Shown here one piece after another: positions 7,026 to 52,088 of a stretch of DNA of 64,000 bases (within the stretch, counting starts at the first letter, position 1; each line of letters starts with the position of its first letter). The translations under genes and the position numbers were made by a program. The notes under the pieces were generated by a model that was given only the letters and a program-made list of their open reading frames with translations, was not told where the DNA came from and did not search any database. Source of the DNA: Shigella phage SSE1; the sequence record MK639187; one strand, given 5' to 3'.

Positions 7026-7358
7026 ATGTCTACTAAAATCAAAAACGTAGTTAATTCTTTCGCTTTCGATAAAGTTGTTGCTCTTCTGGAATCCGGCAAT
7101 ATTGTTACTCCTCAAGTTCTTGACGCATGGGAATTCCGTCTTTATGAAATCATGCAAAAACACGACCAAAAAATTGGACGTAATTCTATTCGTGAAATTC
7201 TAGTACAATATATTCTTTCTGAATTTGACGTTGCTGCATTTGGTGTTGAATCTAAAGCTTATCAGAAACATGAAATCTCTGAAAAGACTATCCGTCGTAT
7301 GAAAAATCAACGTAAGAAAAAATTCGTTGACCTGAAAATTGTTAAGGCGGTAAAATGA
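7026..7358 (+). CDS. Hypothetical protein
   Basis: ATG 7026 after GAGGA, downstream of promoter cassette 6958-6995. Confidence 0.5.
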   Translation: MSTKIKNVVNSFAFDKVVALLESGNIVTPQVLDAWEFRLYEIMQKHDQKIGRNSIREILVQYILSEFDVAAFGVESKAYQKHEISEKTIRRMKNQRKKKFVDLKIVKAVK

Positions 7359-37756: not shown

Positions 37757-38068
37757 ATGGTTTATGTATATGCAATAGTTTATCGAGATATGGAAGGATT
37801 TACTGTCCCGGTTCCACTTGATGAGCATCGTCCTGCAGTATTTTTTAGAAAAGATATTGCAGATAAAGTTTTCGATACTTTGAAAACACAGTATAAAACA
37901 GATTTAAAAATGGGAGTTCTAAGAATGGTCGAAACTCCGCGTAAGTTCTGGTTTAATAAGCTTGAAATGAAACACGTTAAACTAGATGCGGAGACGCAAA
38001 AATTGTATCAACGAATCCTGGATACAGGCCGTATTGTTAGTATTCCAATTGCAGGGACTTTACGATGA
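37757..38068 (+). CDS. Hypothetical protein (dda.1-like position)
   Basis: 103-aa ORF. Confidence 0.5.
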   Translation: MVYVYAIVYRDMEGFTVPVPLDEHRPAVFFRKDIADKVFDTLKTQYKTDLKMGVLRMVETPRKFWFNKLEMKHVKLDAETQKLYQRILDTGRIVSIPIAGTLR

Positions 38069-39378
38069 CATTTGATGATTTGACTGAAGGCCAGAAAAAC
38101 GCCTTCAACGTTGTTATGAACGCTATTAAAGAAAAGAAACATCACGTAACTATTAATGGGCCTGCTGGTACAGGTAAAACAACCCTTACTAGATTCATCG
38201 TTGAAGCCCTTATTTCTTCTGGAGAATCAGGTATTATTTTAGCAGCCCCTACACATGCCGCTAAAAAGGTTCTAAGCAAACTTGCGGGTCAAGAAGCATC
38301 GACTATTCATAGCATTCTTAAAATCAACCCAACTACATACGAAGAAAACGTATTGTTTGAACAGAAAAAGGTTCCGGACTTAGCCTTGTGCCGTGTACTG
38401 TTATTTGATGAAGCGTCAATGTGCGACCGTTCTCTGTTTAAAATAATGTTAGCTAGTATCCCTAAATGGTGTACAGTAATTGGAATCGGCGACCGATGCC
38501 AGATTCGTCCGGTAGACCCAGGTGAATCAACTGCGTATCTAAGTCCTTTCTTCACTCACAAAGACTTCGTGCAATGCAACCTTACAGAAGTTAAACGTAG
38601 CAATGCACCAATTATTGATGTTGCGACTGATATTCGTAATGGGAAATGGATTTACGATAAAGTAGTTGATGGACATGGTGTTCACGGATATACAGACCTT
38701 AAATCGTATATGATGAACTATTTTAACGTCGTTAAAACTCCTGAAGACCTTTTCGAAAATCGAATGATGGCATTCACAAATAAGTCGGTGGACAAGTTAA
38801 ATTCAATTATTCGCCGAAAACTTCTTGAAACAGAAAAACCATTTATTAAAGACGAAGTCATTGTTCTACAGGAGCCATTTACTAAGACATATAAGCTAGA
38901 TGGTAAAAATATTACCGAAATGCTTTTCAATAACGGCCAATTCGTTCGTATTCGAGATGCTGTAGAAACGTCTACATTCGTTAAAGCACGTGGTGTTTCA
39001 GGCGAATATATGATACGATACTGGAATCTTACAGTAGAAACATATGGGGATGATGAAGAATACATCCGCGAAGATATAAAGGTTATTTCTTCTGAAGAAG
39101 AGCTTTATAAATTCAATTTGTTTTTGGCTAAGACCGCAGAAACATACAAATTCTGGAATAAAGGTGGTAAAGCTCCATGGAGTGAATTCTGGGATGCTAA
39201 ACGTATGTTCACTAAGGTAAAGGCACTACCAGTATCAACCTTCCATAAGGCCCAGGGTATGTCTGTTGACACGGCCTTTGTTTATACACCGTGTATCCAT
39301 TACGCCGATTCAGAATTAGCTAAACAGTTATTGTATGTCGGCACAACTCGTGGTCGGTTTGACGTCCATTTTATTTGA
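38065..39378 (+). CDS. dda: DNA helicase Dda (SF1)
   Basis: 437 aa, Walker A GPAGTGKTT, recognised as T4 Dda-like across its length. Confidence 0.95.
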   Translation: MTFDDLTEGQKNAFNVVMNAIKEKKHHVTINGPAGTGKTTLTRFIVEALISSGESGIILAAPTHAAKKVLSKLAGQEASTIHSILKINPTTYEENVLFEQKKVPDLALCRVLLFDEASMCDRSLFKIMLASIPKWCTVIGIGDRCQIRPVDPGESTAYLSPFFTHKDFVQCNLTEVKRSNAPIIDVATDIRNGKWIYDKVVDGHGVHGYTDLKSYMMNYFNVVKTPEDLFENRMMAFTNKSVDKLNSIIRRKLLETEKPFIKDEVIVLQEPFTKTYKLDGKNITEMLFNNGQFVRIRDAVETSTFVKARGVSGEYMIRYWNLTVETYGDDEEYIREDIKVISSEEELYKFNLFLAKTAETYKFWNKGGKAPWSEFWDAKRMFTKVKALPVSTFHKAQGMSVDTAFVYTPCIHYADSELAKQLLYVGTTRGRFDVHFI

Positions 39379-39387
39379 GAGAAAATT

Positions 39388-40065
39388 ATGAGCACTGATG
39401 TTATTATAGATTTTGAAACATTCGGCAATACATCAAAAGCGGCTGTTATTGACCTTGCGGTTATTGCATATAATTCCGATCCTGAAGTTGTTGAATCATT
39501 TGAAGAACTTGTTCAACGAGGTAAGCGAATTAAATTTAATTTAGCTTCTCAGAAAGGGAAGCGAGTTTTCGCTAAATCCACTATGAAATGGTGGAAAGAA
39601 CAATCGGCTGAAGCACGTAAAAACTTGGCTCCGTCTGAAGACGATGTCACTACGCTTGAAGGCATTAAAATCTTTTTAGATTATTGCCGAGCTAATAAAG
39701 TTGACCAATGGAAATCACAGATGTGGTGCCGTGGTATGAGCTTTGACTTCCCGATATTGGTCGATTTGATTCGTGACCTCTATCGTGATGAAGGTGTTCC
39801 TGAACCAGAGATTGATACTGATAAATTAGAACCGGTTAAATTCTGGGCTCAACGTGATATTCGTACGGCAATCGAAGCTTACTCGTTGACACGAGGATTA
39901 AGTATGTGTCCATTACCGATGGGTACGCTAAAAGGATTCGTTGCCCATGATAGTATTCATGATTGTGCTAAAGATATTTTGATGTTAAAATATGCTCAGC
40001 GTTATGCGCTTGGCCTTGAAGATGTCCCTGAGAATCCTGATCCGTTAAGTGTAAAACAGCGATAA
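39388..40065 (+). CDS. dexA: Exonuclease A DexA (DEDD family)
   Basis: 225 aa, IIDFETFG exo motif I. Confidence 0.8.
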   Translation: MSTDVIIDFETFGNTSKAAVIDLAVIAYNSDPEVVESFEELVQRGKRIKFNLASQKGKRVFAKSTMKWWKEQSAEARKNLAPSEDDVTTLEGIKIFLDYCRANKVDQWKSQMWCRGMSFDFPILVDLIRDLYRDEGVPEPEIDTDKLEPVKFWAQRDIRTAIEAYSLTRGLSMCPLPMGTLKGFVAHDSIHDCAKDILMLKYAQRYALGLEDVPENPDPLSVKQR

Positions 40066-40069
40066 AACA

Positions 40070-40099
40070 GTTTACAACCAAGGATGGTTGGAGTATAAT
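40070..40099 (+). promoter_or_regulatory. Early promoter with spacer hairpin CAACCA/TGGTTG
   Basis: GTTTAC...TATAAT. Confidence 0.55.
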
Positions 40100-40130
40100 C
40101 TTTCTATCTTAACCAAACAGGAAAAACATT

Positions 40131-40625
40131 ATGAATATCAATACTATGGCTACTTACATCCTGAAAGACGAAAAACAAATCAACTGGTACGGTGCTTCAG
40201 TGCGAGCTTATGAAAAGTTTTGTGAAATTTTAGGTGCCACTCAAGGTAATAGTTTCACTATTGTTAACTTCATTAAACAAGTTGAAGGCCCTTGGTTATT
40301 CTTAGAAATTAAAAATTCATACGGTACAATTTCTACTACTGCCATCCCAAGCACCGACTTTGAACTGTTGATTGAAGAAGCACCTGTTAAAGATGGTCTC
40401 CACTTTGATATGGATATCGTTTGTATGTACGGTACTCTGATTAAGCCTATTGAGCCTACTGATTTATTGTGTAAATATGTTTCAATTCGACGCCCATTCG
40501 ATGGTCCAGTAAATGGATGGGTAACTGACCAGTGGATTGAAGATGGGGTTGAACTTCTGAACGTTGTTCATGCCGGTGATTTTAGTGTGGTTCCACGTAG
40601 TGCAGTAGTTAATATTCTAAATTAA
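40131..40625 (+). CDS. Paralogue family protein 1 (C-terminal DQWxEDG...YNIVFxGxFxVV)
   Basis: 164 aa, own early promoter. Confidence 0.55.
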   Translation: MNINTMATYILKDEKQINWYGASVRAYEKFCEILGATQGNSFTIVNFIKQVEGPWLFLEIKNSYGTISTTAIPSTDFELLIEEAPVKDGLHFDMDIVCMYGTLIKPIEPTDLLCKYVSIRRPFDGPVNGWVTDQWIEDGVELLNVVHAGDFSVVPRSAVVNILN

Positions 40626-40627
40626 TG

Positions 40628-40657
40628 TTGTACATCCAAGGATGGATGGAGTATAAT
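40628..40657 (+). promoter_or_regulatory. Early promoter, duplicate of the 40070 cassette
   Basis: TTGTAC...TATAAT with CATCCA/TGGATG. Confidence 0.55.
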
Positions 40658-40686
40658 GAATTCAATTTAACAAAGAGAGAAAAATT

Positions 40687-41142
40687 ATGATTACTATTGG
40701 TGAAATTAAGCGTGTATCAACTGCATCCCGGTCTAAAGCCGCAGGTCGTCTGGTTGAAGTGGTAGGACTTCGCACAAATGGCATGGGACGCATTAAAGAA
40801 GTTAAAGTTCGAATCATTCCTAGTTTTGGACGCCAGGATACTCAGCACGCTTACGTAAGTCCTAAATTCTTGGAAACTCCTGTGAGCGCTCATTTTGCTT
40901 CTACTGAACCTAATGCACAGTTCAAATGGGCCTTGTGTAAAGGTGTTGAATTCCAGACTGATAAAGAATTTGACTTCATCGATGAATACGGTTATCCAAG
41001 CAAAACTGATATTATGTGTGGCTTCATTAGTGACCAATGGGTTGAAGATGGTGAAAAGTTATACAATATCGTATTCTTAGGTGACTTCCGAGTTGTTAAA
41101 GAATCTGAAATCACTCGTTATGTGTCTCCTCGTAAAGCTTAA
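40687..41142 (+). CDS. Paralogue family protein 2
   Basis: 151 aa, own duplicated promoter. Confidence 0.55.
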   Translation: MITIGEIKRVSTASRSKAAGRLVEVVGLRTNGMGRIKEVKVRIIPSFGRQDTQHAYVSPKFLETPVSAHFASTEPNAQFKWALCKGVEFQTDKEFDFIDEYGYPSKTDIMCGFISDQWVEDGEKLYNIVFLGDFRVVKESEITRYVSPRKA

Positions 41143-41151
41143 GGAATTATT

Positions 41152-41571
41152 ATGAATATTGTAAATCTCTCTACAGGTGATTACGTATATGTATCTGTTG
41201 CTTCTCGCTCTAAAGTTGCCGGGAAGTTGGTTGAAGTTCTTTCTGTGAGTGATCCGGTTTTTGGTCGTAACCAAGTTAAAGTTCGTGACGCCGATGGTAA
41301 CATTGGTTACGTTAAAAGCCAATTTATTGAACCAGAAGAAAAAGCGTTCAAATGGAAACTGGGCAGATCAGTTTTAGTTGTAAAAGACTACGAGTTCACC
41401 ATTGCCGCTGCGACAGATGGAACACCGTGGACAACGAATCAAGTTGCTGGTTTTATTTCGGACCAATGGGTAGAAGATGGTGTTAAGCTTTATAACATTG
41501 TTTTCGCTGGGCAGTTCATGGTAGTTCCTGAGTTCCAAATCAAAAAATATTGTCCAGCATCTTTTGCATAA
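41152..41571 (+). CDS. Paralogue family protein 3
   Basis: 139 aa, shares N- and C-terminal motifs with protein 2. Confidence 0.55.
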   Translation: MNIVNLSTGDYVYVSVASRSKVAGKLVEVLSVSDPVFGRNQVKVRDADGNIGYVKSQFIEPEEKAFKWKLGRSVLVVKDYEFTIAAATDGTPWTTNQVAGFISDQWVEDGVKLYNIVFAGQFMVVPEFQIKKYCPASFA

Positions 41572-41575
41572 AGTT

Positions 41576-41626
41576 GTTTACTTCTCCTCCGGTTTTGATA
41601 TTATAACCATATCAACCAGAGGAGAA
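41576..41626 (+). promoter_or_regulatory. Early promoter with TCTCCTC/GAGGAGA inverted repeat spanning -10 and the downstream SD
   Basis: GTTTAC-17-TATTAT. Confidence 0.5.
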
Positions 41627-41630
41627 TAAT

Positions 41631-42155
41631 ATGTTAGTTTACCGCGTAGAACGTAGTTTTTGTACTCAACGTGAATCATTACCAGGAATTGCTATCGAAG
41701 ATGGTAAAGCCGTCAGAATTTGGGAAACCTCTTGGAATAAAGAACCTCGTTCGCCGTATGGTTGGTCGGGCACCGACAACTCTGAAGAAACATGGGAGTT
41801 CCTTGATAAGCATGGAATACTCTCAGGTAACTTCTACCATCACGGCGACAACTATAATGTCCCTAATCGTCCTACAGTAAATGAAGACAAACTCCTTGAA
41901 CAAAATATCTTAAGATACTATAGAATTGAGCACACATTTGAATTGAGTGAAGATTGGGCTCAAGGGTTCTATTTTGGATTTGAAAGTGTTGACGCGGTTT
42001 ATGCATGGTTTGATGACCAGGTGGATGTTGAACTCTTGAAAGCTAAAGGATACTACATCGCGGTCTATGAAGCACCTGATTTCATCCTCGGAAGTTGTCA
42101 ATTAATGTTTAGACGTTCATTGGCAGAACAAGTTGATTTTATTTTGCTAAAATGA
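41631..42155 (+). CDS. Hypothetical protein
   Basis: 174-aa ORF after promoter 41576-41604. Confidence 0.5.
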   Translation: MLVYRVERSFCTQRESLPGIAIEDGKAVRIWETSWNKEPRSPYGWSGTDNSEETWEFLDKHGILSGNFYHHGDNYNVPNRPTVNEDKLLEQNILRYYRIEHTFELSEDWAQGFYFGFESVDAVYAWFDDQVDVELLKAKGYYIAVYEAPDFILGSCQLMFRRSLAEQVDFILLK

Positions 42156-42184
42156 TGTACAACAACTATGGTCTATGATACTAT
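42155..42184 (+). promoter_or_regulatory. Early promoter (ATGTAC...TACTAT)
   Basis: Seen in sequence. Confidence 0.45.
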
Positions 42185-42212
42185 AGACCTATCAAAACAA
42201 GAGGAGAATATT

Positions 42213-42440
42213 ATGAAACGTCAAATCATTAAAAACGTAACTACTGATTCAAACATCGATGAGTTTGAAGATGTTCTGTTTAATCCTGATTTAGTTGTTG
42301 TACAGAAAAACTGGACCGAATTTTTATGCTACACTGAAGTGGTTTACGTTTACGAAAAACTCGGCGATGAAATGCCTATCTATGGTATCTTCCGTGAAAT
42401 CACTGAAAACGGTACAACTTATTGGAAGGAAACTTACTAA
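42213..42440 (+). CDS. Hypothetical protein
   Basis: ATG 42213 after GAGGAGA. Confidence 0.45.
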
Positions 42441-42853
42441 TGGCTAATAAATTCCGCGTTAACTCATGGTACCAATTTATAGATAAACGTGCCCAAGAAG
42501 AGTTTATTAAAGACCACACTGATAATGGGATTTATGCACGACGTCTTGGCATGGAACCGTTTAAAGTATTAGATGTTGACCATCTTGGTCGTCCTACTAA
42601 AATTGTGACATCTACTGGCACGGTTGGATACGCAACAGGCGGTGATATCCTTGATGAAAACTTTATCTGGCTCTCCACGAATGAAGCAGAGTTCTTTGAC
42701 GAAGTTGAAAATCCATATCTAGCGTCCGAAGAGCAAGATTCTGGTGAACTTGACGAATTGTCTGAATTTCCGGTGATGACGATTACTATCGAAAATAACG
42801 ACCAGGCATGGTCTTTGTATCAAATGTTGAAAGCCCACTTTAAGGAACAATAA
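42440..42853 (+). CDS. Hypothetical acidic protein
   Basis: ATG 42440 overlapping previous stop. Confidence 0.45.
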
Positions 42854-51565: not shown

Positions 51566-51567
51566 AA

Positions 51568-51604
51568 TTGTACAAACTCTTGAGAGCAGAGTATAATGCT
51601 CTCA
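51568..51604 (+). promoter_or_regulatory. Early promoter cassette upstream of ndd (TTGTAC...TATAAT in TGAGAGC/GCTCTCA stem)
   Basis: 24 nt identical to the 6965-6988 copy. Confidence 0.55.
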
Positions 51605-51641
51605 TGGATTACAAAAACATTAATCAATTGAGGAAATTAGC

Positions 51642-52088
51642 ATGTCCAAATATTTAACTCGTAAAGACCTTCTGGCAGTTGGCGGTGAAGTTGTTGCAGT
51701 AGTTCGTAACGGCGAATACGGTTCTGAAGTTTCTAAAGAGTTTCGTTCTCGTGAAGGTTTTTACTTCTTTGTTAAAGGTTCATCTGATTGGCGACAAGTA
51801 GCAGCACGATTCTTTGTAGGACGTCAACGTTCTAAACAAGGGTTGGATGCAATTCTTTCTCACATTCGTCAAGGCCGTTCGCAACTAGCCCGTACTATGG
51901 GCACTAACAATATTGAATATGATGTAATCTTTGTTGCAGCTAAGAACATGAAACCACTGACCACTGGTTACGGTAAAGGACAATTGGCTCTGGCATTCAC
52001 TCGCAACCATACATCAGAATATCAAACACTCACTGAAATGAACCGTCTTCTGGCAGATAATTTCAAATTCATTCTGCAGAGTTACTAA
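51642..52088 (+). CDS. ndd: Nucleoid disruption protein Ndd
   Basis: 148 aa; [11 protein letters not shown] and [20 protein letters not shown] recognised as Ndd-like. Confidence 0.85.

Follow-up and report, generated by a model that had tools for sequence, protein, structure and literature searches.

A predicted MotB-family gene block with a repeated early-promoter cassette in Shigella phage SSE1

Introduction

Three neighboring open reading frames (ORFs) on the plus strand of Shigella phage SSE1 encode proteins that end in a similar block of sequence, and the first two of them follow similar promoters; what are these genes, and how did their arrangement arise? They lie at 40131–40625 (ORF1), 40687–41142 (ORF2) and 41152–41571 (ORF3) of a 64,000-nucleotide (nt) stretch of record MK639187, hereafter the window, and are followed on the same strand by ORF4 (41631–42155). 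A first-pass annotation of the sequence had read them as the outcome of a recent tandem duplication followed by divergence of the kind seen in arms-race genes. We consider it very likely that they are instead the MotB gene block of a Mosigvirus, in which ORF2 is MotB, ORF3 is a second MotB copy and ORF1 is MotB.1, and that the promoters before ORF1 and ORF2 (P1 and P2) belong to a known type of repeated early-promoter plus stem-loop cassette (PeSL).

MotB of phage T4 is an abundant early protein that binds tightly and independently of sequence to both host DNA and the glucosyl-hydroxymethyl-C DNA of the phage; it copurifies with H-NS and StpA and alters the footprint of H-NS, its overproduction relieves repression by H-NS and is toxic, and it doubles the T4 burst size (PMC6070864, PMC7827196). 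MotB (‘Category 1’) and MotB.1 (‘Category 2’) have the same C-terminal domain and different N-terminal domains, and it has been suggested that one derives from the other by duplication; both genes were found in 41 genomes, and RB69 has two motB genes and one motB.1 (Patterson-West et al. 2021, PMC7827196). The N-terminal domain of T4 MotB.1 has been described as LSm-like (Kim et al. 2025, CSBJ 27:2051, PMC12152347). PeSLs bracket gene modules, which can be excised, inserted and exchanged through them, and in one of their five subclasses the stem-loop lies between the -35 and the -10 (Arbiol et al. 2010 GBE 2:140, PMC2839356; Comeau et al. 2014 GBE 6:1611, PMC4122927). The gene family, its two subfamilies, their shared C-terminal domain, the arrangement of two motB genes plus motB.1 and the repeated early cassettes are therefore already published. 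The discovery value of the SSE1 locus is small; it is a clean example of PeSL-bracketed modules that change place, with allele exchange between genera.

Results

The three ORFs encode predicted MotB-family proteins

The first-pass annotation had described a C-terminal block common to ORFs 40131, 40687 and 41152, and a three-way alignment confirms it with exact coordinates: the invariant columns DQWxEDGxxLxNxVxxGxFxVV fall within amino acids (aa) 127–155 of ORF1 (40509–40595), 110–138 of ORF2 (41014–41100) and 98–126 of ORF3 (41443–41529). The N-terminal block assigned to ORF2 and ORF3 (SRSKxAGxLVEV) is also present, as VSTASRSKAAGRLVEV in ORF2 and VSVASRSKVAGKLVEV in ORF3, and is absent from ORF1 in the same alignment. 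Pairwise alignment had been named as the check that could expose the shared motifs as artefacts of composition. The alignments are significant: in BLASTP with composition-based statistics, ORF2 and ORF3 are 43% identical over 145 aa (E 4e-29), ORF1 and ORF3 62% over 29 aa (E 3e-11) and ORF1 and ORF2 32% over 72 aa (E 2e-10). When the profiles of the two subfamilies, MotB and MotB.1, are compared with each other (hhalign), 52 C-terminal columns match with a probability of 98.9% (E 2e-17). Because of these scores we attribute the similarity to homology, and an origin in composition is ruled out. ORF1–ORF3 are thus paralogues by way of a common C-terminal domain. No further copies of the genes were found elsewhere in the 64-kb window, and the DNA of ORF1 and ORF2 shows no similarity beyond patches of 21–42 nt.

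All three proteins score above the gathering cut-off (25 bits) of the Pfam motB family, PF17613. ORF2 matches along its full length with 124 bits (6.9e-36), ORF3 with 81.8 bits (6.6e-23) and ORF1 with 34.7 bits (2e-8), the last over profile positions 82–153 only (ORF1 aa 88–159). ORF2 (151 aa, isoelectric point (pI) 8.5) shares 47% identity with T4 MotB and 91% with RB69 MotB, and ORF3 (139 aa, pI 6.3) is 39% identical to T4 MotB. Both combine the N-terminal SRSKAAG(K/R)LVEV motif with the C-terminal domain, as is characteristic of MotB proper, and both retain all columns that are invariant among 29 members of the MotB family. ORF1 (164 aa, pI 4.6) is not MotB proper, because the N-terminal motif is absent; it joins a MotB.1-type N-terminal domain to a DPTDLLCK...GWVTDQWIEDGVELLNVVHAG C-terminal domain, matches phrog_2333 (6e-81) and is 38% identical to T4 MotB.1 (E 5e-26) in an alignment that starts at residue 1. 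The homologue sets that we collected, of 105 and 220 proteins, all carry PF17613. We assign ORF2 as the orthologue of T4 MotB, ORF3 as a second, shorter MotB copy, and ORF1 as MotB.1 with a different N-terminal domain.

Comparison with the characterized proteins bears on these assignments. ORF2 resembles T4 MotB (Patterson-West et al. 2018 Viruses 10:343; 2021 Viruses 13:84) over its full length, in its two-domain layout and in its SRSKAAGKLVEV and DQWVEDGVKLYN motifs, and also in its position between dexA and cef and its type of early promoter. ORF1 resembles T4 MotB.1 in the type of its N-terminal domain and in its C-terminal domain, but at 164 aa it carries an additional linker segment (FDMDIVCMYGTLIKP), has a promoter of its own and lies directly after dexA. 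ORF4 (174 aa) was considered as a fourth paralogue and rejected, as BLASTP finds no similarity between it and ORF1–3; it matches T4 MotB.2 (34% identity, E 2e-15; phrog_1106). In some database records, all four genes carry the label ‘transcriptional regulator’. A defence or anti-defence annotation of ORF1–4 was dropped, since none of them matches the defence and counter-defence models of PADLOC.

The block lies between dexA and cef of a Mosigvirus

The window DNA is 99.7% identical to that of Escherichia phage vB_EcoM_SQ17 and 97% identical to that of JS09, a Mosigvirus (Straboviridae, Tevenvirinae) of the RB69 group, and we assign the phage by this similarity to Mosigvirus, as an RB69/JS09-like T-even coliphage. 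Positions 38065–42853 encode, all on the plus strand, Dda helicase, DexA exonuclease, ORF1, ORF2, ORF3, ORF4, Cef and GoF. The MotB-family genes are thus found between dexA and cef in the synteny dda-dexA-...-cef-goF, with predicted promoters of early type, and the block sits in the non-essential early region that this interval represents. Its downstream limit is P3, the early promoter cassette of ORF4 (41572–41630), with a -35 of TTTACT at 41577–41582 and a -10 of TATTAT at 41599–41604. The motB region of RB69 and JS09 has the same gene set in the same order (motB.1, motB, a MotB-like gene, motB.2) with no substantive difference, and SSE1 is another isolate of this group.

P1 and P2 resemble each other beyond the early-promoter consensus

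P1 occupies 40066–40130, with a -35 of TTTACA (40071–40076), a -10 of TATAAT (40094–40099) and the Shine-Dalgarno (SD) sequence AGGAAA; P2 occupies 40626–40686, with a -35 of TGTACA (40629–40634) and a -10 of TATAAT (40652–40657). As sigma-70-type promoters they score 11/12 (TTTACA-17-TATAAT) and 10/12 (TGTACA-17-TATAAT), respectively. The first-pass annotation had held that the same cassette precedes ORF1 and ORF2, and this is borne out: 40073–40126 and 40631–40684 are 74% identical over 54 nt, or, aligned alternatively, 80% identical over 66 nt (E 2e-6). Their core, CCAAGGATGGWTGGAGTATAAT at 40078 and 40636, agrees at 21 of 22 nt between the two copies and is matched nowhere else in the 64 kb, even with up to 3 mismatches (0 are expected in shuffles), and no further copies of the cassette were found elsewhere in the window.

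Strong T4 early promoters share a consensus, and P1 and P2 could in principle have converged on it (GTTTAC-N17-TATAAT) with no copying involved. Counting P1 and P2, 19 plus-strand sites of the window fit the T4 early-promoter pattern, and these sites do share features beyond the hexamers, such as a downstream CTATCAA. However, P1 and P2 agree at 17 of 18 positions of their non-consensus spacer, and this spacer occurs in none of the other 17 sites, nor in any other promoter of the 64 kb. The 74–80% similarity over 54–66 nt also reaches into the 5′ untranslated region (UTR), and the spacer is confined to Mosigvirus loci, in each of which, among the loci compared, it is present at both sites. We therefore give convergence very little credence. 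P1 and P2 are copies of one cassette, and by sequence this cassette fits the ordinary repeated early promoters of the PeSL type.

Several features support the latter assignment. P1 is an intergenic early promoter of the T4/PST type (TTTACW-N17-TAYWAT) with an SD and an ATG at its end, and P2 conforms to the same description with one mismatch in the -35. Repeat copies flank variable modules at points of rearrangement, in that P1 and P2 bracket motB.1 while P3 and P4 (the promoter before cef) bracket motB.2; motB.1 and motB.2 are the two modules that are ordered differently from T4, RB6 and JS98-like phages. As with published PeSLs, cassettes of ~55–65 nt form direct repeats around single gene modules in a hyperplastic region, beside a rearrangement relative to a sister lineage. 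Unlike the G/C-rich stems of PeSLs, those of P1 and P2 are much weaker, and terminator activity is doubtful. Specifically, the P1 spacer contains the inverted repeat CAACC/GGTTG and the P2 spacer CATCC/GGATG, such that the two spacer differences are mutually complementary; P1 has a predicted hairpin of 5–6 bp (-6.9 kcal/mol), P2 folds differently, and no U-tract lies downstream. We rejected this covariation as proof of a functional structure: a single compensatory pair in two sequences, within a weak stem and with unlike minimum-free-energy folds, is suggestive only. A mini-ORF within the cassette (ATG GWT GGA GTA TAA), whose putative SD abuts its ATG, was dismissed by eye.

The distribution of the cassettes points to their order of appearance. 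The P1 cassette is conserved in three other Mosigvirus loci (L002, L004 and L005) and is missing at that position in other genera, where motB.1 follows motB.2 without a promoter of its own and motB has its own promoter. Because motB.1 is promoterless in those genera, P1 is probably the later, Mosigvirus-specific copy of the motB promoter; the 5′UTR of P2 is orthologous to the motB 5′UTR of RB6 and JS98-like phages. ORF3 has no promoter of its own and its SD (AAGGA) overlaps the stop codon of ORF2, from which we infer that it is co-transcribed with ORF2 from P2.

The gene copies are old and probably exchange alleles by recombination

The arrangement invites the idea that gene and promoter were recently triplicated in tandem and then diversified rapidly in an arms race with the host. 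The genes stand in tandem with shared domains, two of them share a promoter cassette, and MotB is thought to act on the host xenogeneic silencer H-NS (PMC7827196). In addition, ORF1–3 are clearly more divergent than their neighbors among close relatives; against one Mosigvirus locus (L005) the ORF2 protein is 77% identical, and dda, dexA, ORF4 and cef are 99–100% identical.

Copy number in related phages, which the first-pass annotation had proposed to compare, does not support a recent duplication. We analyzed the loci of T4, JS09, RB6 and 16 IMG/VR contigs. T4 has both MotB and MotB.1, as does every other locus fetched with a complete dexA–cef interval, and ORF2 and ORF3 are only 43% identical to one another. 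In a tblastn search of 50,697 phage records, 773 contain MotB. An ORF3 orthologue of at least 80% identity is present in 207 of these, with coverage of the query at 80% or more in nearly all; the best match in the remaining 566 stays under 60%, which leaves the range from 60% to 80% empty. The ORF2/ORF3 pair is present unchanged in 207 records, Tequatrovirus RB6 among them, and the duplication is not recent. The repeated promoter is no relic of a gene duplication either: the promoters are ~80% identical where the DNA of ORF1 and ORF2 shares only the short patches described above, and with motB.1 promoterless in other genera, promoter and gene were not duplicated jointly.

The loci differ in the order of their modules. 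In Mosigvirus the order is dexA / P1-motB.1 / P2-motB-motB′ / P3-motB.2 / cef, with ORF3 as motB′, and in T4 and other genera it is dexA / P-motB.2-motB.1-type / P-motB / cef, with a single motB; in two loci (L006 and L008) motB.2 had no match. RB6 (Tequatrovirus RB3; L019, 1094–3020) is a hybrid of the two, in which motB.2 and motB.1 are 90% and 79% identical to those of T4, motB is 82% identical to ORF2 and motB′ is 91% identical to ORF3. The switch falls downstream of the -10 of a T4-type promoter and before the SD of a Mosigvirus-type motB, and this hybrid locus argues that the motB-motB′ pair travels as a unit between genera. A metagenomic Logan contig (ERR12931180; L021, 1373–1894, protein P0035) contains a single motB with an ORF2-type N-terminal half and an ORF3-type C-terminal half, the crossover lying near QFKW, in a T4-like gene order (motB.2, motB.1-type, chimera, cef). 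This chimera looks like a tandem pair collapsed by unequal crossing-over.

The pattern of divergence is likewise not that of an arms race. We compared the window with four close relatives by gene-wide, pairwise Nei-Gojobori estimates of nonsynonymous (dN) and synonymous (dS) divergence. The dN/dS values range from 0.08 to 0.29 (ORF1 0.14–0.16, ORF2 0.14–0.29, ORF3 0.08–0.18) and thus lie below 0.3 for each gene in each of the four comparisons; positive selection on ORF1–3 was rejected on this pairwise evidence, and all three genes are under purifying selection. It is dS that rises: against the two or three most divergent relatives it is 0.2–0.5 in ORF1–3 versus 0.04–0.15 in dda, dexA, ORF4 and cef, with goF intermediate (up to 0.27), so that synonymous divergence in ORF1–3 is ~3–8-fold above that of most flanking genes. 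A 100-nt sliding comparison shows that this divergence is patchy within ORF1–3 and ends at P3. Across genera, the MotB.1 C-terminal domain is conserved above Dda helicase, being 72–88% identical where Dda is 57–59% identical. The raised and patchy dS, together with the RB6 hybrid locus and the fused gene of the Logan contig, indicates recombination among old alleles and not an arms race. A recent triplication with arms-race diversification is already largely refuted by these observations, and we judge it most improbable.

Predicted structures and charge suggest different roles for the two domains

Structure prediction was the remaining check named in the first-pass annotation. We ran AlphaFold2 on alignments of 29 (ORF2/MotB) and 32 (ORF1/MotB.1) homologues and obtained models with pLDDT values of 83 for ORF2 and 80 for ORF1, each with two beta-rich domains and a low-confidence linker. 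Both models contain an SH3/Tudor/KOW-like barrel, which would correspond to the shared C-terminal domain. In the ORF1 model an alpha/beta N-terminal domain is followed by a disordered linker (aa 86–104) and a MotB-type C-terminal barrel (aa ~108–164), and its BFVD matches are MotB.1 proteins, T4 P39415 included. ORF2 is predicted to begin with a basic barrel of KOW-like type, which a variable linker joins to an SH3/Tudor-like barrel at the C-terminus. No solved structure of any relative was found by sequence profile. A search of 1.84 billion proteins with the shared-domain profile yields only 27 representative clusters, and the MotB-type family is therefore very narrow. A profile of the ORF1 family compared with the GoF of the window (hhalign) gives a probability of 0.3%, such that no sequence link joins the MotB.1 N-terminal domain to GoF; the LSm-like relationship between MotB.1 and GoF is visible in structure only, according to Kim et al. 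2025 (PMC12152347).

The domains differ in charge. The N-terminal domain has a net charge of +8 in ORF2 (pI 11.3) and +1 in ORF3, and the shared C-terminal domain has a net charge of -4 in both ORF1 and ORF2. By these values, it would be the basic KOW-like head of MotB that binds DNA without specificity. A published HHpred analysis described the MotB C-terminal domain as an OB-fold that might bind DNA; the acidic, SH3/Tudor-like look of this domain suggests testing for protein contacts instead. With low confidence, we propose that the shared barrel has one role in all three proteins, for which a protein contact would be the simplest candidate. A more specific version, which we offer tentatively and regard as rather doubtful, is that the C-terminal barrel is not a DNA-binding OB-fold but a Tudor/SH3-like docking or oligomerization module of all MotB-family proteins, through which the basic KOW-like MotB, the neutral-headed second MotB and the acidic LSm-like MotB.1 would assemble on one partner (each other, or H-NS/StpA) as a nucleoid-remodeling set whose composition is tuned by PeSL-flanked module swaps.

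The MotB.1 subfamily appears in the alignment of its relatives as a domain-shuffling set, in which a near-invariant C-terminal domain of 56 aa is preceded by N-terminal regions of at least three different kinds, among them a duplicated domain and KOW-like heads (proteins P0181 and P0183). In ORF1 the short motif (F/I)D(M/F)D(I/V)xxMYGTLIKP is part of the linker (aa 92–105; 40404–40445), but it stands at the extreme N-terminus of forms of 180–250 aa.

A working model for the locus

Taken together, the sequence comparisons allow high confidence that ORF1–3 are MotB-family early genes and that ORF2 would act as T4 MotB does; we are moderately confident that ORF3 is co-expressed with ORF2 and functional. 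In the model that we favor, host sigma-70 RNA polymerase would transcribe all three genes immediately after infection, ORF1 from P1 and ORF2 with ORF3 from P2. ORF2 would coat DNA through its strongly basic KOW-like N-terminal domain, and the acidic C-terminal barrel would serve all three proteins as a common protein-contact module, for association with themselves or each other or for docking on a host partner such as H-NS/StpA, so that three different N-terminal heads could be brought to one place. As for the history of the locus, P2 would be the ancestral motB promoter. The motB.2 module, with its promoter, would have moved from its T4 position in the gap between dexA and motB.1 to the site before cef, and P1 would be the copy of P2 that gave motB.1 its own promoter after this relocation.

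A different possibility is that ORF3, and perhaps also ORF1, is a redundant copy in decay and without function. ORF3 is shorter, having lost part of the N-terminal hairpin and the linker, its N-terminal charge has fallen to +1 versus the +8 of ORF2, a single motB suffices in T4 and most other genera, and in the chimeric Logan contig the pair has collapsed into one gene. Despite this, ORF3 is intact, retains every invariant residue of the family, has its orthologues of at least 80% identity in 207 records and evolves with a dN/dS of 0.08–0.18, and the orthologues of ORF1 are also intact, with an almost invariant C-terminal domain. Decay is thus very unlikely, and we retain the model in which the genes are functional.

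Some points nevertheless weigh against the MotB/PeSL interpretation as a whole. The stem-loops of P1 and P2 are weak (5–6 bp, about -7 kcal/mol), and the single compensatory difference between their stems amounts to one event. The function ascribed to ORF2 rests on its 47% identity to T4 MotB, and deletion of motB.1 from T4 leaves burst size and latent period normal (PMC12152347).

A one-base difference in the T4 reference motB.1

In the T4 reference genome (NC_000866; segment at record 7291–7344, minus strand ~2330–2220 of our T4 locus, L001; compare window 40509–40625), motB.1 is annotated as a protein of 119 aa and 13.8 kDa that ends in ...WVTDQWIGRWR*. The reference has one extra G relative to the window and to T4T (attgGaagatgg). 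Without it, the T4 frame runs on as ...DQWIEDGVELLNVVHAGEYSVVPRSAVVAILN*, which gives a protein of 143 aa with a complete MotB-type C-terminal domain, and T4T annotates MotB.1 at this length. The extra G is found only in AF158101 and NC_000866 and is absent from 11 other T4/T4T genome records and from RB55 and RB59; by this comparison the reference sequence is probably wrong at this base. The size of 13.8 kDa given for MotB.1 in Kim et al. 2025 (PMC12152347) is that of the truncated annotation, and the RB69 ‘29-aa peptide’ of Patterson-West 2021 may have the same origin. This probable error is relevant for work with the annotated 119-aa, 13.8-kDa MotB.1.

Other early promoters of the window

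P3 contains an inverted repeat of 13 nt (41582–41594/41614–41626; TTCTCCTCCGGTT / AACCAGAGGAGAA) with the -10 in the loop and the SD (GAGGAG) in the right arm, and its predicted hairpin has a free energy of -19 kcal/mol. The SD would be paired in transcripts that read through from P2, and transcripts initiated at P3 would lack the left arm. T4 motB.2 is preceded by the same layout, and P3 is homologous to that T4 promoter. P4 (42156–42215) has TGTACA at 42156–42161 and TACTAT at 42179–42184, with a 7-bp inverted repeat (GGTCTAT/ATAGACC) that overlaps the -10, and 18 of 20 positions in its 5′UTR agree with the 5′UTR of P3.

The ndd promoter of the window (51566–51606, before ndd at 51642–52088; TTGTACAAACTCTTGAGAGCAGAGTATAATGCTCTCA) and the promoter of motB in T4 and RB6 (GTTTACAAACTCTTGGGACCAGAGTATAATGGTCCC) are cassettes of one type, and the inverted repeat around the -10 covaries: GAGAGC/GCTCTC at ndd in the window, GGGACC/GGTCCC in T4, and GAGAGCC/GGCTCTC in JS98-like phages. 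One family of promoter cassettes thus serves two nucleoid-targeting early genes, ndd and motB, in different phages. The segment 28744–28801 is 76% identical to P3 (41576–41633), and other early promoters also form repeat families (6688, 30084, 36089). Many early promoters in the window have an inverted repeat around the -10 or one that pairs with the downstream SD, and early promoters throughout this genome appear to follow a PeSL-like design. Finally, the start of cef is probably the ATG at 42213, which gives the 75 aa annotated in JS09, rather than the 42168 of the mechanical ORF list.

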